44,217 nucleotides of DNA from an uncultured Chloroflexota bacterium (GCA_964631365.1 CAZVZW010000002.1:9849-54065); one strand, 5' to 3'. Positions 13,048-35,100 are shown, counted from the first letter of the stretch. A program made the numbers and translations. Notes: generated from the sequence alone by a model not told the origin.

Positions 13048-13213
13048 GGAGGATCTCCTGTCGGTCCGGCACCCGGGATCGTAGCAGCGCTCCCGTTCAA
13101 ATCCTTCGCGGCTTCGCATTCCTCCCTGCGGGTCGGCCGCAACCAGGCGCTCACCCCGCCGCCACCCCCGCAGCTGCCGCCCTCGCTGGTCCGGCGTCGG
13201 AGCCCACCGACGT

Positions 13214-19543: not shown

Positions 19544-19562
19544 CGTTGCGCAGAACGCAACG
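19544..19562. promoter_or_regulatory. candidate IclR operator, perfect palindrome CGTTGCG-N5-CGCAACG (site 1)
   Basis: cgttgcgcagaacgcaacg lies in the divergent region, 103 nt upstream of the SBP start and 129 nt upstream of iclR. Extra half-sites occur nearby: gcaacg near 19477 and cgttgc near 19612. Confidence 0.45.
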
Positions 19563-19690: not shown

Positions 19691-20515
19691 GTGCCCGCCG
19701 GACCGACTGGTGCCGATTTCGGCAAAGGAACACAGAATTTGGCGAATCTACAATCTGCCGCCCGGGTAGTCCATGCCTTGGAGTTCCTTGCCCGGGTCGA
19801 GGGCGCCGGCCTTGACGAGGTCGCCACCGAGCTCGGCGTCCACAAATCAAACGCCCTCCGTCTCCTCGCCACCCTGCGCGATTTCGACTGGGTTACCCTC
19901 GACCGCACCCGGTCCCGGTACTCCCTCGGCCCCCGGCTCGTCACCATTGGGCAGGCCGCCACCTCCGGGCAGCAGTTCGAACAGGCGATTGGCCTCGCCC
20001 GGGAGGTGCGCGACCTCACCGGTGAAACCGCTCATATCTGCGTGCCCTACGGCGACCGCATGCTGGTCGTCGGCCGGGTCGACAGCACCACGCCCCTAAA
20101 AGTAACCACCGACGTCGGTTGGGAAGACCACCTGCACGCCTCCGCCGTCGGCAAAGTCTTCCTTGCCACCCTGTCCGACGGCGAACTCGAACTCGTGCTC
20201 AACCGGCTCGACCTGGCGAAGCTCACCCCTTCCAGCATCGATTCCCGGGACGCCCTCCTCGAAGACATCCGGCTGATCCGCGAGCGCGGCTACGCCATCA
20301 ACCAGGAAGAGCAACAATCGGGAACCACCGCCATCGGCGTCGCCCTCGGATTCGGAGTCGGACCGCTCTCCATCATCTCGCTATCCGCCAGCGGCCCCGC
20401 CAATCGTTTCTCCCCCGCCGTAATGGAGGGTTTCGCCCCGGCGATTCTGGAGATCGTCCGCCCGTATCAGGCGCTGGACGGCCTGCCTGGGTTGGCCGAC
20501 GGCGAAAACGCGTAA
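19691..20515 (+). CDS. IclR family transcriptional regulator
   Basis: 274 aa. N-terminal winged HTH (AARVVHALEFLARVEGAGLDEVATELGVHKSNALRLLATL) and a C-terminal IclR effector domain. The 3' end overlaps the convergent enolase gene by 49 nt. Confidence 0.85.
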   Translation: MPAGPTGADFGKGTQNLANLQSAARVVHALEFLARVEGAGLDEVATELGVHKSNALRLLATLRDFDWVTLDRTRSRYSLGPRLVTIGQAATSGQQFEQAIGLAREVRDLTGETAHICVPYGDRMLVVGRVDSTTPLKVTTDVGWEDHLHASAVGKVFLATLSDGELELVLNRLDLAKLTPSSIDSRDALLEDIRLIRERGYAINQEEQQSGTTAIGVALGFGVGPLSIISLSASGPANRFSPAVMEGFAPAILEIVRPYQALDGLPGLADGENA

Positions 20516-25090: not shown

Positions 25091-25109
25091 CGTTGCGCCC
25101 TTCGCAACT
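25091..25109. promoter_or_regulatory. candidate IclR operator, CGTTGCG-N5-CGCAACt (site 2)
   Basis: cgttgcgcccttcgcaact lies in the divergent region between the M20 operon (start 24837) and the Gfo/Idh/MocA operon (start 25239). Confidence 0.4.
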
Positions 25110-26302: not shown

Positions 26303-27061
26303 ATGGGCCAGTCGCTGATCGCCGGGCCCGAAGTCTTCTGGATGAGTCACTGGGATGAAGAGCTGCCGCTGGCCTTCAACGTCACCCTCATCCGCGGTCA
26401 CGGCATCACCGCCCTGGTCAACACCTCCCCACCCGACACCACCGAATACGTTGAAGAGCACTTCCCGGCCATGCGCTACCTGCACGACGCCCCGAAGGGC
26501 GACCTCGTCCGCGAAGACGGCCACTACATTGAAGCCGCCCTCGCCGCCGCGGATCTCACTCCCGACGACATCACGCACGTCTTCCTCACCCCGCTTGAGA
26601 TGTACACCACCGGCACGCTGGACAAGTTCCGCCGCGCCCAGATCGGGATCGCCAGGCGCGGCTGGATCCACTTCCACGTCACCCACGACCATCCCCACGA
26701 TTCCCGCTGGCGGTCCTTCACCCCGGAGACAATGGTCGACTTGATCACCGACTCCTGGGATCGCGTCCGCCTCCTCGAAGACGAAGACCAGATCGCGCCC
26801 GGGCTGCGCACCTGGTGGTCTGGCGCCCACCACCGCGAGTCAATGGTGGTCGAAGTCGATACCGCCGCCGGCGTCGTCGCCATCTCCGACTCGTTCTTCT
26901 ACTACGAAAACGTCGAAGACGGTCAGATGCTGGGCCTTTGCGAGAACATGTACGAGGCTCTCGAGGCCAACCGCCGCGTCCTGGCCACCGCCGACCACAT
27001 CGTTCCCGTCCACGACCCCAAAGTGTTCGATCGCTACCCCGGCGGCATAATCGCCGATTGA
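26303..27061 (+). CDS. metallo-beta-lactamase-fold, AHL-lactonase-like protein with a degenerate HxHxDH motif
   Basis: Collinear by eye with AiiA-type lactonases, but the HxHxDH position reads TPLEMYTTG. GAHH, SDS and VHD elements are retained. The start is uncertain: ATG 26303, or CTG 26276 directly behind GAGGAG, which would add LEYSVQVLS. Confidence 0.6.
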   Translation: MGQSLIAGPEVFWMSHWDEELPLAFNVTLIRGHGITALVNTSPPDTTEYVEEHFPAMRYLHDAPKGDLVREDGHYIEAALAAADLTPDDITHVFLTPLEMYTTGTLDKFRRAQIGIARRGWIHFHVTHDHPHDSRWRSFTPETMVDLITDSWDRVRLLEDEDQIAPGLRTWWSGAHHRESMVVEVDTAAGVVAISDSFFYYENVEDGQMLGLCENMYEALEANRRVLATADHIVPVHDPKVFDRYPGGIIAD

Positions 27062-28190: not shown

Positions 28191-29240
28191 ATGAGCCATG
28201 TGATGACCGTTCGCGGCCCCATCGACCCATCGGAAGTCGGTCCCACGCTCACCCACGAGCACATCTTCATGGACGGCCGTCCGGGCTGGGACCCGTCCGA
28301 GTTGCACGATCGCTCCATCGGCGAGCGCCCCCTCTCACCCCGCACCGCTGGCATCGCGCGCTGGAACGGCTCCGGCATTCGCGACAACCTGGCACTGCTC
28401 CATGACGACGACTACGACCTGATGCGTGGCGAAGTCGCCGAATTCGTGGAAGCCACCGACGGCAAGGGAGTCCTCGTCGAACTCACCATCGTCGGGATAA
28501 ATCCCCAGCCTGCCGCCCTCCTCAAGCTGTCCAACAACCTCGACCTGCACATCGTCGAAGGTTGCGGCTACTACGTCCACTCCACCCATCCTGAGTCGCT
28601 TGAAGACCAGAGCGTCGACGAGATCGCCGACGAGCTCCACAGGATCGTCACCGAAGGGTTCGACGGCACCCCGGTTCGTCCCGGGCTCATCGGCGAGATC
28701 GGCACCTCCGAGGAGCTTCAACCTTGCGAAGAGCGCGTCCTGCAGGCCTCGGCCCGGGTCGCCATCAAGACTGGGCTCCCGATCAACATCCACGCCCATC
28801 CGCCGAAGCTCCCGGTACTGATGCGCATCCTCGACATCCTCGAGGAAGCCGGCCACGATCTCCGCCGCACCTCGATCTCCCACCTCGACGAAATCTGGGA
28901 CCTCGACTATCACATTCAAGTCCTGAGGCGCGGCGTCATCACCGGCTTCGACAGCTTCGGCCAGGACGGTTACTTCAGCCCCACCTGGAAGTCGATGAGC
29001 GACCACACCAAGATGACCACCATGGTCGCCCTGATCGATCACGGTTTCGAAGACCAGTTGGTCATGTCACAGGACATCTGCAAGAAGCACTACCTGCTCG
29101 AATTCGGCGGCCTCGGGTACGACCACGTTGTCCGCCGCATCGTCCCGCGCCTGAAGAGTGTCTTCGGCGTCGACGACGCGACTATCGACAAGCTACTCGT
29201 GCAGACTCCGCGGCGTTTCCTGACCATCGACAGGGACTAG
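28191..29240 (+). CDS. phosphotriesterase-family (Php/PTER-like) hydrolase, copy 1
   Basis: 349 aa. MSHVMTVRGPI, THEHI (HxH), GEIGTSE, NIHAH, SHLDE and SQD ligand pattern. Confidence 0.9.
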   Translation: MSHVMTVRGPIDPSEVGPTLTHEHIFMDGRPGWDPSELHDRSIGERPLSPRTAGIARWNGSGIRDNLALLHDDDYDLMRGEVAEFVEATDGKGVLVELTIVGINPQPAALLKLSNNLDLHIVEGCGYYVHSTHPESLEDQSVDEIADELHRIVTEGFDGTPVRPGLIGEIGTSEELQPCEERVLQASARVAIKTGLPINIHAHPPKLPVLMRILDILEEAGHDLRRTSISHLDEIWDLDYHIQVLRRGVITGFDSFGQDGYFSPTWKSMSDHTKMTTMVALIDHGFEDQLVMSQDICKKHYLLEFGGLGYDHVVRRIVPRLKSVFGVDDATIDKLLVQTPRRFLTIDRD

Positions 29241-29243
29241 CCG

Positions 29244-29279
29244 CCCCGGCGACGCGCCGGGGGCCGGAGCGCCGGCCCC
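29244..29279. terminator. two overlapping perfect GC hairpins between convergent genes (candidate bidirectional terminator)
   Basis: ccccggcg-acg-cgccgggg (29244-29262) and ggggccgg-agcg-ccggcccc (29260-29279). Each has an 8-bp perfect stem. There is no U-tract. Confidence 0.35.
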
Positions 29280-29306
29280 GCCCGGCAACCACCGGAGGAA
29301 CTACGC

Positions 29307-30353
29307 CTAGGCCGGGTCCGGGCGCGTCAGCAGCCGGCGCGGAGTCTCCAGCAGTGCCTTGTCGATCGCCGTCTGCGACAGCCCCATGTGCTCCCGCATG
29401 CGCGGGATCACCCGCTCCAGCACGTGGTCATAGCCCATCCCCGCGTAGCGACGCAGGTAGTGCTTCTTGCCCATGTCCTGCGCCACCACCAACTGATCCT
29501 CAAATCCGCGCTCGGCCAGAGACACCATCGTCTGCGCCTTTTCCTGGTCGCTCAGCGATTTCCACGTCGGCGTGAAATAGCCGTCCTGGCCAAAGCTGTC
29601 GAACCCGGTCACCACGCCCTTTTCCAGCACCTGGGTGTGGTAGTCGAGGTCCATGATCTCATCCAGGTGCGACAGGTAGATCCGGTCGGCCGGCAGTCCC
29701 TCTTCCAGAAGTAGATCGATGATGCGTAGTGTCACCGCCAGCTTTGGCGGATGGCAGTGCACGTTCACTGCCGTCCCCGTCGCCAGCCCTGCCCGCGCCG
29801 ATGCCCGCAGCACCCGTTCCTCACAATCCTGCAGCGTTTCCGACGTCCCGATCTCGCCGAGAATTCCGGGCCGCACATCGGTGTCCAGTAAGCCCTCGTT
29901 CAGTTGCGTCAGGAAGTACTCGGTCATCCGCTCCACGGAGGCGTCCTCCAGCCACTCCGGGTGACAATCGTGCACGTAGAAGCCCAGCCCCGCCACCACG
30001 TTCAGGTCCAGTTCCTCGGACAGTTGGCGCATCTTCGCCGGCGCCGGTGAGATACCCTCGATCGTCAACTCCACTAGGCAATTGCCGCCCGCCTCCTTAA
30101 AATGCCCCACCTCTTCTAGGATGAGCAGGTAGTCCCTGTCCGGCGACGCCACCAGGTCGTCCAGGTAGGCCCCGTTGTCCCAGCGCGCCAGCGCCGCTAG
30201 GCTTGCGTCGATCGGCTGCCGGCCGTCCTCCGGATCGGCCAGTCCCGACGGGTCCCAGAACTGACTGGCATCGAAGAATATGTGCTCGTGCATCATCGTC
30301 GGACCCAGGTCCCCGGGTCGGATTGGCCCCCGTACCGTCATGATATGACTCAT
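29307..30353 (-). CDS. phosphotriesterase-family (Php/PTER-like) hydrolase, copy 2
   Basis: 348 aa. MSHIMTVRGPI, MHEHI, GEIGTSE, NVHCH, SHLDE and AQD. Confidence 0.9.
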   Translation of the reverse strand: MSHIMTVRGPIRPGDLGPTMMHEHIFFDASQFWDPSGLADPEDGRQPIDASLAALARWDNGAYLDDLVASPDRDYLLILEEVGHFKEAGGNCLVELTIEGISPAPAKMRQLSEELDLNVVAGLGFYVHDCHPEWLEDASVERMTEYFLTQLNEGLLDTDVRPGILGEIGTSETLQDCEERVLRASARAGLATGTAVNVHCHPPKLAVTLRIIDLLLEEGLPADRIYLSHLDEIMDLDYHTQVLEKGVVTGFDSFGQDGYFTPTWKSLSDQEKAQTMVSLAERGFEDQLVVAQDMGKKHYLRRYAGMGYDHVLERVIPRMREHMGLSQTAIDKALLETPRRLLTRPDPA

Positions 30354-30393
30354 CGCAGTCCCCTTCGTTTGCTACTTCCCGAAACAATCCCGG

Positions 30394-31443
30394 CTACGCG
30401 TCGCCGTCCCGCGTCAACAGCCGTCGCGGTGTGCCCACCAGCGCCTTGTCGATCGCCGCCTGCGACACGCCCATGAACTTCTTCATCCGCGGCATCACCC
30501 GTTCGATCACGTGGTCATAGCCCATCCCGCCGTAGCACCGCATGTAGCGTTTTCGACCGATGTCCTGGGCCACCACCAGCTGATCCTCGAATCCCCGATC
30601 AATTAACGCCACCATCATCTGCATCTTCTCGAGGTCGCTCCGCGACTTCCAGGTGGGCGTGAAATGCCCATCCTGGCCAAAGCTGTCGAACCCCGTCACC
30701 ACGCCCCGTTCCAGAACCTGGGTGTGGTAGTCCAGGTCCATGATCTCGTCCAGGTGGGAGAGGTATACCCGGTCCGCCGGCAGCCCTTCCCCGATCAGGG
30801 TATCGATGATCCGCAGCGTCACCTCCAGCGCCGGGGGATGGCAGTGCACGTTCACCGTCGTGCCCGTCGCCACCCCGGACCGCCCCGCCGCCTGCAAGAC
30901 CCGGATCTCACAGTCGTAGATCTCCTCCGATGTTCCGATCTCGCCCACGATCCCCGGCCGCACGTCCGTACCCAGCAACCCGCCGTGTAGTTGTTTCAGG
31001 AAGTAGTCGGTGAGCTCCTCCACCGACGCGTTGTCCACCCACGGCGGATGCACCGCGTGCACGTAGAAACCGAGCCCGGCGACCACGTGGAGATCTACCT
31101 CCTCCGACAGATCACGCACCCGTAGCGGCGCCGGCTCAATGCCCTCGACGGACAGCTCGACGAGGCAGCTGCCGCCGCAGGCTTTGTAGTGCCCGACCTC
31201 CTCAACTAACAGGTCGTAGTCGGCATCCGGCAACATCACGACATCGTCCAGAAACCCGGTGCCGTGCCATCGGGCGAGGCCCCCCAGGCTGGCGTCAATG
31301 GGCCTTCTGCCAACCTCCGGATCCGTCATTTCGGACGGGTCCCAGAAGTCCGCGTTCGTAGTCTTGAAGATGTGCTCGTGCATCATCGTCGGCCCTAGAT
31401 CCTCGGGGCGGATCGGCCCCCGCACAGTCATGATGTGACTCAT
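30394..31443 (-). CDS. phosphotriesterase-family (Php/PTER-like) hydrolase, copy 3
   Basis: 349 aa with the same ligand pattern as copy 2. RBS GAAGGGG. Lies 40 nt upstream of copy 2. Confidence 0.9.
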   Translation of the reverse strand: MSHIMTVRGPIRPEDLGPTMMHEHIFKTTNADFWDPSEMTDPEVGRRPIDASLGGLARWHGTGFLDDVVMLPDADYDLLVEEVGHYKACGGSCLVELSVEGIEPAPLRVRDLSEEVDLHVVAGLGFYVHAVHPPWVDNASVEELTDYFLKQLHGGLLGTDVRPGIVGEIGTSEEIYDCEIRVLQAAGRSGVATGTTVNVHCHPPALEVTLRIIDTLIGEGLPADRVYLSHLDEIMDLDYHTQVLERGVVTGFDSFGQDGHFTPTWKSRSDLEKMQMMVALIDRGFEDQLVVAQDIGRKRYMRCYGGMGYDHVIERVMPRMKKFMGVSQAAIDKALVGTPRRLLTRDGDA

Positions 31444-31467
31444 CTCAAAACCCCCTTCGTTGGACAG

Positions 31468-32535
31468 CTAGTCAGACCATTGGTCCCGGCCGTCGCCGAC
31501 CCGGGTCAGCAGCCGCCGCGGCGTATCCACCAGCGCCTTGTCAATGGCCGTCTGCGACACGCCCAGGTGCTTCTTCATCCGCGGCATCACCCGCTCGATC
31601 ACGTGGTCGTAGCCCATGCCGCCGTAGCGTCGCATGTAGTGCTTCTTGCCGATGTCCTGGGCCACCACCAGCTGATCCTCGAATCCCCGGTCGATCAACG
31701 CCACCATCATCTGCATCTTCTCGAGGTCGCTCCGCGACTTCCACGTCGGCGTGAAGTACCCGTCCTGGCCAAAGCTGTCGAACCCCGTCACGACCCCTCG
31801 CTCCAGCACCTTCGTGTGGTATTCAACGTCGTCGATTTCGTCGAGGTGGGAAAGGTAGACCCGGTCCGCCGGAAGCCCCTGGCCGGTCAGCGTGTCAATA
31901 ATTAGCAGCGTCGTGTCCAGGACCGGCGGATGGCAGTGCACGTTCACTGCCGTGCCCGTTGCCACCCCGGCTCTCCCCGCCGCCTGCAGAACCCGAATCT
32001 CGCAGTCGACGATGTCTTCCGACGTCCCGATCTCGCCAATGATCCCCGGCCGCACGTCCGTACCCAGTAACCCTTCGTTCAGTTGCTTCACGAAGTAGTC
32101 CGTCAACTCCTCCACCGACGCATTGTCCACCCAGGGTGGGTGGATCGCGTGCACGTAGAAACCGAGCCCGGCCACCACGTGCAGATCGAGCTCCTGGGAC
32201 AGGTCGCGCATGCGCACCGGCGCCGGTTTGATGCCCTCGATCGACAGCTCCACGATGCAACCGCCGCCGCACGATTTGTAGTGCCCCAGTTCCTCGATCA
32301 TCAGGTCGTAATCGGCGTCGGGCAACAACACGATATCGTCACGAAACATGCTGCCGTTCCACCGGGCGAGCCCCGAAAGGCTGGCGTTCATCAACTTTTC
32401 GCCAAGTTCCGGATCTTCGAGATCGGACGGGTCCCAGAACGCTGCACTGGTGTCTTTAAAGATGTGCTCATGCATCATCGTGGGGCCGACTTCTTCGGGC
32501 GAAATCGGACCGCGTACGGTCATTACGTGGCTCAT
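31468..32535 (-). CDS. phosphotriesterase-family (Php/PTER-like) hydrolase, copy 4
   Basis: 355 aa with the same ligand pattern. Lies 24 nt upstream of copy 3 and shares long identical DNA blocks with it. Confidence 0.9.
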   Translation of the reverse strand: MSHVMTVRGPISPEEVGPTMMHEHIFKDTSAAFWDPSDLEDPELGEKLMNASLSGLARWNGSMFRDDIVLLPDADYDLMIEELGHYKSCGGGCIVELSIEGIKPAPVRMRDLSQELDLHVVAGLGFYVHAIHPPWVDNASVEELTDYFVKQLNEGLLGTDVRPGIIGEIGTSEDIVDCEIRVLQAAGRAGVATGTAVNVHCHPPVLDTTLLIIDTLTGQGLPADRVYLSHLDEIDDVEYHTKVLERGVVTGFDSFGQDGYFTPTWKSRSDLEKMQMMVALIDRGFEDQLVVAQDIGKKHYMRRYGGMGYDHVIERVMPRMKKHLGVSQTAIDKALVDTPRRLLTRVGDGRDQWSD

Positions 32536-32614: not shown

Positions 32615-32632
32615 TGTTGCGCAGACCGCAAT
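32615..32632. promoter_or_regulatory. candidate IclR operator, tGTTGCG-N5-CGCAAt (site 3)
   Basis: tgttgcgcagaccgcaat lies 80 nt upstream of PTE copy 4 (start 32535) and 188 nt upstream of the creatininase-family gene (start 32820). Confidence 0.35.
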
Positions 32633-34563: not shown

Positions 34564-35026
34564 CGACCCTCCCGGTGTCCATCGCCCAAATCGCGGCCAC
34601 TATACCGGGCTGCTCGCGACCAATCCGGGCGCTGGCTTCAGCCGCTCGCCCGCCGACTCGTCACGTCCCGCGGCCGCCTAGCTCAGGCCGCGGCAGTTCA
34701 CGCAGCGTCGCTTGACCCGGTCCAGCACCTCGTCGAAGTCCCCGCCGTCCTCCAGGAGCACTGCCCCCACCTTCTGCAGCATCGCGTTCGGCGTGATCGG
34801 ATTTCCTAACACCTCGCACAGAGCCTCGGCATCGCCCAGGTGCTAGGCGAGGGGCTGCAACTGCCGCGGCGGGCCGGTCGTAGCGATACAGGGATAAGGT
34901 ACAGGTCATACCGACCCGACGGGCGGGTGTACGTCGGTATGGGCCACCGGTGGCAGGACCCCGGGACAGCCCTATGCGGTTGCCGGGCCCTCCCCCGGGT
35001 GGAAATCGGGAGGGCCTTGGATGCGG

Positions 35027-35100
35027 TCGGGGCGAAAGGATTTGAACCTTCGGCCTCATCGACCCGAACGATGCGCTCTGCCAAGCTGAGCTACGCCCCG
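35027..35100 (-). tRNA. tRNA-Pro (anticodon CGG)
   Basis: The reverse complement folds as a cloverleaf: acceptor CGGGGCG/CGCCCCG, D arm GCUC-AGCUUGGCA-GAGC, anticodon arm CAUCG-UUCGGGU-CGAUG (C34 G35 G36, G37), variable loop AGGCC, T arm GAAGG-UUCAAAU-CCUUU, discriminator A. 74 nt. CCA is not fully encoded. Confidence 0.92.

Follow-up and report, generated by a model that had tools for sequence, protein, structure and literature searches.

An array of four PTER/Rsp3690-like hydrolase genes with a mosaic history in a catabolic gene cluster of an uncultured Chloroflexota bacterium

We analyzed a 44,217-nucleotide (nt) stretch of DNA (the window) from an uncultured Chloroflexota bacterium (GCA_964631365.1 CAZVZW010000002.1:9849-54065) that contains four phosphotriesterase (PTE)-family genes, here called c1 to c4. 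c1 (28191-29240, plus strand, 349 amino acids) is the final gene of an operon, Gfo1-unk26-Gfo2-c1. It converges on a minus-strand tandem formed by c4 (31468-32535, 355 amino acids), the first gene, c3 (30394-31443, 349 amino acids), the middle gene, and c2 (29307-30353, 348 amino acids), the final gene. The spacers are 66 nt between the convergent c1 and c2, 40 nt between c2 and c3, and 24 nt between c3 and c4. An earlier reading of the sequence alone (the original prediction) had described four phosphotriesterase-family paralogs, c1 on the plus strand and c2-c4 on the minus strand with spacers of 40 and 24 nt, and the open reading frames lie exactly there. PF02126 matched all four copies over their full length with scores of 175-196 bits (gathering cut-off 22.4), 194.7 bits in the case of c1, whose best match in the PDB was 3k2g (E 6e-60). 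At the protein level c3 and c4 are 82% identical, c2 and c3 73%, c2 and c4 71%, and c1 and the others 55%; the corresponding nucleotide identities are 82%, 74%, 73% and 61%.

Each copy is preceded by its own Shine-Dalgarno sequence. The string ACGAAGGGG lies upstream of both c2 and c3, indicating that the ribosome-binding site was part of the duplicated unit. Scans for promoter and terminator consensus sequences gave nothing above the shuffled expectation, and the fold of the 66-nt convergent spacer between c1 and c2 was unremarkable (z = -0.16). The 3' ends of c3 and c4 vary within the population. The stop codon of c3, TAG (30394-30396), reads TGG (position 30395) in three other assemblies from the same population, giving a 448-amino-acid read-through product that runs out of frame into the start of c2. 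TAG and TGG were each found in at least two assemblies. Where the TGG form is present, c4 is shorter by three residues (W353, TGG to TGA, position 31477).

We found that the four proteins keep a complete set of predicted metal ligands. The motifs HEH, GEIGTSE, N[VI]H[CA]H, SHLDE and [AS]QD are present in 4/4 copies. HMMER alignments matched them to His12, His14, Glu125, His158, His186 and Asp243 of Escherichia coli Php and to Glu174, His206, His235 and Asp303 of sponge PTER. PTER is known from animals as an N-acetyltaurine and N-acetyl-beta-alanine amidohydrolase. By these alignments, the binuclear metal center in all four copies would be held by HxH on strand 1, a bridging residue on strand 4, His on strands 5 and 6, and Asp on strand 8. 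The predicted ligands are H22, H24, E169, H201, H231 and D295 in c1 (with Tyr128), H22, H24, E167, H199, H229 and D293 in c2, and H22, H24, E168, H200, H230 and D294 in c4 (with Tyr127). The bridging residue is Glu in all four copies, at the position of the carboxylated Lys. Both the full set of six ligands and the bridging role of the Glu in GEIGTSE, which aligns with Glu125 in the Php motif AEIGTSE, had been proposed in the original prediction and were borne out on alignment.

Its description of the proteins as Php-like was not. The NCBIfam equivalog model for Php (NF007373) gave 115-131 bits against a cut-off of 486, and PTER and Rsp3690, a protein of Rhodobacter sphaeroides, were far closer. 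In phmmer searches of the PDB, the E values were 1e-47 to 6e-60 for 3k2g (Rsp3690) and 9efa/9efb (sponge PTER), compared to 1e-30 for Php. An AlphaFold2 (AF2) model of c4 (mean predicted local distance difference test score, pLDDT, 95.9) has eight strand/helix units, that is, a (beta/alpha)8 barrel. Foldseek searches with this model gave template modeling (TM) scores of 0.89-0.91 to 9efa, 3k2g and 4qsf and 0.75 to Php; the score to 3pnz was 0.78, at 22% identity. Judged by alignment and by the modeled fold, the array proteins are PTER/Rsp3690-like PF02126 hydrolases of the amidohydrolase superfamily and not orthologues of Php.

It could be argued that the four proteins are orthologues of an already characterized enzyme (Php, an organophosphate hydrolase, a phospho-sugar lactonase or PTER) and act on the same substrate. 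They do share the fold and the metal ligands with these enzymes, one of the two best structural matches is PTER, and the Tyr that stabilizes the oxyanion in PTER is kept. However, scores were far below the cut-off not only for Php but also for the organophosphate hydrolase/PTE model (NF041153; 73-88 bits, cut-off 500) and the phospho-furanose lactonase model of the Lmo2620 type (NF045706; 52-73 bits, cut-off 630). Moreover, Glu replaces the carboxylated Lys, and the residues that contact taurine in PTER are changed, as detailed at the end of this text. We therefore regard orthology with a shared substrate as improbable.

We found that most related loci contain a single gene of this type. Relatives came from a scan of species-representative genomes, and protein look-ups then added two further sets (L081 and L084-L086). 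Two or more copies within 10 kb were present in 7/80 related loci, with a maximum of three, and a four-copy array was seen only in this population, in agreement with the earlier suggestion that a four-member array is unusual. The closest relatives in the species-representative scan (58-61% identity) belong to metagenome-assembled genomes (MAGs) of Acidimicrobiia, two of them labeled Candidatus Spongiisociaceae, to unclassified bacterial MAGs, and to one Streptosporangiaceae MAG. Loci L001-L009 have one PTE-family gene within a syntenic cluster; the syntenic clusters of the relatives contain Amidohydro_2, metallo-beta-lactamase (MBL)-like unknown, Gfo/Idh/MocA, creatininase-family, M20 and enolase-superfamily genes. 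JGI metagenome contigs scanned with c4 yielded no relative.

A locus of a related genome, L081, is ~75% identical to the window in DNA sequence and has a three-copy array with one gene of the c1 type, one of the c2 type and one of the c3/c4 type. Protein identities are 79% for L81_c and c1, 79% for L81_b and c2, 83% for L81_a and c4, and 78% for L81_a and c3. A neighbor-joining tree grouped c2-c4 with L81_a and L81_b (100% bootstrap) and c1 with L81_c (100%), and both groups were placed among single-copy genes.

We mapped the variable positions onto the secondary structure of the c4 model and found that variation is concentrated in the catalytic-face loops L1, L4, L5, L6 and L8. In loop 1 (residues 24-71), 29/48 residues are identical between c3 and c4, versus 82% overall. 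In loop 4, directly after GEIGTSE, 2-3/5 are identical. These are the two regions, the N-terminal part and the loop after GEIGTSE, that had been singled out by eye as the most divergent. In loop 5, the residue after HPP is K, K, A and V in c1, c2, c3 and c4, respectively; in loop 6, the residue after HLDEI is W, M, M and D. The variation in loop 8 adjoins the catalytic Asp; loop 7 hardly varies. Residues that distinguish the c1, c2 and c4 types are found again in their L081 orthologues, and at least three of the copies therefore appear to have been kept as functionally distinct enzymes.

We found that divergence along the genes is not uniform: the nearest relative of c4 switches at about nt 370. 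We compared c4 to c3 and to L81_a with breakpoint tests (MaxChi and a 3SEQ-like test, with permutation p values). MaxChi placed the breakpoint between nt 369 and 375 of the alignment. Sites at which c4 agrees with only one of the two others were split 32:57 (c3:L81_a) to the left of the breakpoint and 110:52 to the right (p <= 0.0005). For codons synonymous in all three sequences, the split was 12:19 on the left and 68:22 on the right (p = 0.0035). Across the breakpoint, third-position identity fell from 65% to 50% for c4 and L81_a and rose from 57% to 70% for c3 and c4. In the 5' third of c4 (32171-32535, minus strand), the L081 orthologue is 82% identical in nucleotides and 65% in third positions, compared to 75% and 57% for c3. 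The 3' two-thirds of c4 (31471-32170, minus strand) is homogenized with the corresponding part of c3 (gene nt ~366 to the end; 30397-31078, minus strand). Here the closest relative of c3 is c4 and vice versa, with 85% identity in nucleotides, 70% in third positions, and a proportion of synonymous differences (pS) of 0.39.

Similar patterns were found at two other places. L081 has the mirror image, with L81_a homogenized with L81_b in the 3' part (tested versus c4). Within the window, the first ~90 nt of c3 are c2-like, with 85% identity to c2 versus 72% to c4 and pS of 0.53 versus 0.86. A test restricted to the window, with c2 and c4 as the parents of c3, gave p = 0.001 for all sites and p = 0.19 for synonymous sites.

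The original prediction had drawn attention to long identical stretches in c3 and c4, and these are exact: a 47-mer (30605-30651 = 31697-31743) and a 39-mer (30559-30597 = 31651-31689). Together they make up a near-identical 93-nt block (30559-30651 in c3 and 31651-31743 in c4, both on the minus strand) with three third-position mismatches that encodes WKSRSDLEKMQMMVALIDRGFEDQLVVAQDI. In a GENECONV-style permutation, the longest run shared by c3 and c4 had a p value of about 0.05 with the four window copies alone and about 0.003 when the L081 orthologues were included (five sequences; uncorrected for 10 pairs). The identical runs are by themselves marginal, and the mosaic is better shown by the breakpoint tests.

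An apparent mosaic might also arise with no recombination if constraint were uneven, with a conserved barrel core and variable loops. Consistent with this, the high-identity region at nt 720-960 is likewise the most conserved one in comparisons with c1, and the synonymous-only test within the window was not significant. Constraint, however, alters rates and not the identity of the nearest relative, whereas the nearest relative of c4 changes from L81_a to c3, also at synonymous sites. In addition, c1 and c2 have different amino acids in the segment that contains the 47-mer. Uneven constraint is thus an unlikely explanation of the pattern, and we conclude that the tandem copies exchanged sequence, mainly in their 3' two-thirds.

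Polymorphism in the population was also recorded. Compared to L084, a nearly identical locus described below, the window has 11 single-nucleotide polymorphisms (SNPs) in the 4.3-kb array and 12 in the flanking 12.4 kb, a density ~2.6x higher inside the array, and the array SNPs are nearly all synonymous. Among 13 SNPs between the window and L084-L086, many of the alternative alleles are the base found in a paralogue. With three paralogues and GC-rich third positions, chance alone would produce such matches, so they are no guide to ongoing conversion in the population.

We found that the copies are intact, old and under purifying selection. The number of synonymous substitutions per synonymous site (dS) between c3 and c4 is 0.68 overall, 1.06 in codons 1-124 and 0.55 in the remainder. 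The ratio of nonsynonymous to synonymous rates (dN/dS) is 0.04-0.34 for all pairs and 0.14-0.34 for the within-window pairs tested. Together, the high dS and low dN/dS indicate that the genes have been maintained for a long time and were not recently duplicated. c3 is the most derived copy, with 109 private differences versus 49 in c4 (relative to L81_a). It also shows a Y-to-H change in the GYF motif of loop 7.

The original prediction had offered gene conversion or a very recent duplication as the source of the mosaic. Conversion or recombination is supported by the breakpoint tests; very recent duplication is not. In its strict form, the latter holds that the tandem arose very recently without conversion, the identical blocks being undiverged remnants and the variable segments having evolved fast under positive selection. 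One c3/c4-type gene in L081 does make a duplication after the split parsimonious, and c3 and c4 are the closest pair (82% protein identity). Nevertheless, their pS is at least 0.29 in every 40-codon window, reaching 0.86 in the first 40 codons (0.53 for c2 and c3), and their dN/dS of 0.14-0.16 gives no sign of positive selection. In third positions of the 5' third, moreover, c4 is closer to L81_a than to c3, as described above. Very recent duplication is therefore very unlikely.

We found the same array in independent assemblies. Three loci, L084, L085 and L086 (from ENA ERZ27232244, NCBI GCA_002896335.2 and NCBI GCA_024712145.1), are 99.87% identical to the window and contain the same four genes, collinear and without insertions or deletions over up to 16.7 kb. 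A cluster look-up added contigs of 25-29 kb encoding these same proteins. Three independent assemblies with the same layout indicate that the array is not an assembly artefact.

One short contig of the same population, L087 (ENA ERZ23491369), speaks for mis-joined paralogues or a wrongly estimated copy number in a metagenome assembly. Its nt 1-1538 are ~100% identical to the window and contain a single clean c4::c2 hybrid gene, which is c4 up to nt 504 and c2 from nt 526 and is flanked by the c4 upstream region and c1. The junction falls in a 21-nt block, GGCGAGATCGGGACGTCGGAA, that encodes GEIGTSE and is identical in c4 (32017-32037, minus strand) and c2 (29838-29858). A join inside so short a repeat could come from a de Bruijn assembler, and the name of the record marks it as a metagenome scaffold. 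This hybrid is either a deletion allele made by unequal crossing-over or an assembly chimera from short k-mers. For the array as a whole, an artefact is extremely unlikely: the order of the genes is the same in the three other assemblies, longer contigs carry the same proteins, and the copies, at 61-82% nucleotide identity, are easy to assemble apart.

Another contig, L088, comes from a TARA Oceans metagenome, and it shows that the lineage occurs in open-ocean samples. Its gene at the c4 position (696-1745) belongs to a more distant relative and shares 83% identity with c4. Within this gene, nt ~60-200, a patch in the region coding for loop 1, is 88-93% identical to c2 of the window and 60-67% identical to c4, which indicates another exchange between paralogues (or a chimera).

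The array lies in a catabolic cluster that extends from about 13.4 to 34.6 kb (13416-34563) and is syntenic with L001-L009 and L081. Three kinds of gene are present twice in the cluster: Amidohydro_2 genes, MLE-type enolase-superfamily genes and genes for IolG-like Gfo/Idh/MocA dehydrogenases. The remaining members encode a PotABCD-type ABC transporter, an IclR-family regulator, an ArgE/DapE-type M20 deacylase, an MBL-like unknown, and formamidase-like, creatininase-family and UxuA-like proteins. The PotA subfamily model scored above its cut-off (385 versus 355.6); equivalog cut-offs were reached by none of the cluster's enzymes. The MBL-like unknown (26303-27061, plus strand, 252 amino acids) has no match in Pfam or NCBIfam and a faint similarity to the MBL fold (4v0h, E 1.6e-4; AiiB 2r2d, E 0.09). 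It is the best conserved gene of the cluster across phyla, with 72-77% identity in L002-L008.

Our results support the notion that the cluster is one IclR regulon, as the original prediction had implied in speaking of a single regulon. The candidate regulator gene (19691-20515, plus strand) matches the Pfam models HTH_IclR and IclR_C, and in NCBIfam it is BhcR/KdgR-like, below the curated cut-offs. A 17-bp palindrome, GTTGCG-N5-CGCAA(C/T), has exactly three occurrences in the 44 kb, one per divergent promoter region, compared to 0.03 expected by chance. GTTGCGCAGACCGCAAT (32616-32632) lies between c4 and the creatininase-family gene, ~80 nt upstream of c4, and is a candidate IclR operator. GTTGCGCCCTTCGCAAC (25092-25108) lies between the divergent M20 and Gfo1 genes, upstream of the operon that ends in c1, and GTTGCGCAGAACGCAAC (19545-19561) lies between the gene for the binding protein of the ABC transporter and the IclR gene. 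The palindrome is kept at the corresponding sites in L081 and L001-L009, and it precedes the PTE array in L081-L085, L087 and L088.

Possible signs of horizontal movement were found around the cluster. The named relatives of the housekeeping protein MurT are all from Chloroflexi/Chloroflexota, and one c4-cluster member is labeled Chloroflexota. These two lines of evidence point to a Chloroflexota host, and an Acidimicrobiia sponge symbiont, first suggested by the homologues of the cluster, was rejected on their account. MAGs of Acidimicrobiia and Streptosporangiaceae contain the closest homologues of the cluster (55-77% protein identity), with the same set of genes and the same operator, which suggests that the cluster spread horizontally between phyla. 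GC skew at third codon positions (GC3 skew) follows the DNA strand and not the coding strand. On the plus strand it is -0.1 to -0.6 across a 22-kb block containing the cluster (about 13.0-35.0 kb) and +0.02 to +0.48 in the flanks, suggesting an inversion or insertion of the block. A tRNA-Pro(CGG) gene (35025-35100, minus strand) lies at one edge. A possible att site at the other edge (13095-13106, a 12-nt match to the T-arm of the tRNA-Pro gene) was rejected, as ~0.1 such matches are expected by chance.

Taken together, these results make it likely that a PTER/Rsp3690-like hydrolase gene has expanded in tandem in one lineage, within a conserved, probably IclR-controlled catabolic cluster of an uncultured marine Chloroflexota bacterium. 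Most relatives have one such gene, L081 has three and this population four. Exchange within the tandem has homogenized the 3' two-thirds of c3 and c4, and the 5' third, which encodes loop 1, has kept a different history.

Several observations weigh against parts of this interpretation. The mosaic signal within the window alone is weak at synonymous sites, and the test of identical runs is marginal. Codon bias common to a genome inflates third-position similarity between its genes, although it is unable to create a positional breakpoint. Between genomes, synonymous divergence is close to saturation (pS 0.6-0.75), which hides the donor and direction of each exchange and allows the c3/c4 duplication to be placed either before or after the split from L081. 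In its 5' third, c4 has a pS of 0.45 to L81_a, compared to 0.67-0.76 for the orthologous pairs of c1 and c2; this low value could also reflect exchange between lineages. Co-regulation is deduced from a motif. Finally, the activities known for this bacterial clade are limited to the promiscuous esterase activities reported for Rsp3690 and for Pmi1525 of Proteus mirabilis (cited in PMC5341072).

By homology, a hydroxide bridging the two metals would attack a carbonyl group in an ester, lactone or N-acyl amide; attack on a phosphoryl center is a less likely alternative. In c4, the metals would be held by H22, H24, E168, H200, H230 and D294, with Asp294 acting as the general base and Tyr127 stabilizing the oxyanion, as proposed for PTER. 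It is tempting to speculate that the substrates are small molecules with a cationic amine rather than N-acetyltaurine. Two features point weakly in this direction: an invariant Glu replaces the sulfonate-binding Arg238 of PTER, and the cluster contains a PotABCD-type transporter. This idea is thus based on one residue and a transporter family, which counts against it.

A bolder view, to which we assign a small chance, is that the array is a maintained set of specialized deacylases or lactonases for related small cationic metabolites, perhaps host-derived or from dissolved organic matter, in a horizontally shared island. If so, conversion would keep the barrel core homogeneous and selection would preserve the divergent loop-1 caps encoded in the 5' third. 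The array would then be a natural bacterial case in which gene conversion sets bounds on specialization, in the enzyme branch from which animal PTER arose. The skew-inverted 22-kb block, its tRNA-Pro edge and the relatives in Acidimicrobiia, some of them sponge-associated by name, would together represent a horizontally shared catabolic island.

Tandem expansion of paralogues with partial concerted evolution is well known, and our results do not overturn current understanding. What is new is such an array in an uncharacterized bacterial branch of the PTER/Rsp3690 group. The function of PTER was assigned only in 2024 and its structure followed in 2026, and the bacterial relatives Rsp3690, Pmi1525 and the present clade have no known physiological substrate. 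The four copies offer a test system in which natural variants share a catalytic core and differ in their cap loops. With a transporter, a regulator and a recognizable operator adjoining the array, expression and binding assays could be used to find the pathway inducer and the substrates. The tandem genes are also a clean, statistically supported bacterial example of partial concerted evolution, and they can be compared to orthologous arrays of one, three and four copies.

The array resembles several known systems and differs from each. Like the paralogue expansions described for marine Chloroflexota in the SAR202 literature (PMC6946804, PMC10444878), it belongs to a host of the phylum Chloroflexota, and its cluster also has duplicated enolase-superfamily, Gfo/Idh/MocA and Amidohydro_2 genes. 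The word "phosphotriesterase" has zero occurrences in these two papers, and PF02126 is not mentioned in them. E. coli Php (1bf6/4lef) shares the Glu125-type bridge, the GEIGTSE-like motif and six aligned ligands with the copies. Unlike them, PTER and Rsp3690, Php (292 amino acids) is without the insertion of ~55 residues after strand 1, in loop 1. The copies, at 348-355 amino acids, align with Php only from residue ~76-89 on, plus the HxH strand.

The closest solved bacterial structures are those of Rsp3690 (3k2g) and Pmi1525 (3rhg/4qsf), with TM scores of 0.90-0.91. Both have the Glu bridge, a length equal to that of the copies and the loop-1 insertion. However, identity is only 27-38%, loops 5 and 7 differ, and the counterpart of SHLDE in Rsp3690 is CHMNP. 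In our tree, Rsp3690 grouped with Rhizobium-type genes, outside the clade of c1-c4. Rsp3690 and Pmi1525 are described as promiscuous carboxylate and methylphosphonate esterases of PF02126 (cited in PMC5341072).

Sponge PTER (9efa, 9efb) has the same (beta/alpha)8 fold as the copies, including the long loop-1 insertion (TM score 0.89, 32% identity), and the same ligand set with a Glu bridge. In PTER, Tyr131 stabilizes the oxyanion, Asp303 is the base and His305 the proton donor, and the sulfonate of taurine is contacted by Arg209, Arg238 and Tyr268 (PMC12873775). Tyr131 is kept as Tyr127/128 in the copies. In contrast, Arg238 is replaced by Glu and Arg209 by Pro, and Tyr268 falls in a gap (loops 5 and 7 being compared by sequence alignment, with no superposition); in the sequence alignment, the position of His305 is taken by Cys in c1-type proteins and by Gly in c2-c4. 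The Glu at the position of Arg238 is the E of SHLDE and is present in all four copies and in at least 90% of 53 relatives. A further difference from the animal enzyme is that the bacterial genes form a four-copy set in a catabolic cluster with multiple hydrolases. Because Tyr131 and Asp303 are kept and the substrate contacts are changed, we suggest that the chemistry of the copies is probably PTER-like and that their substrate is probably not N-acetyltaurine.

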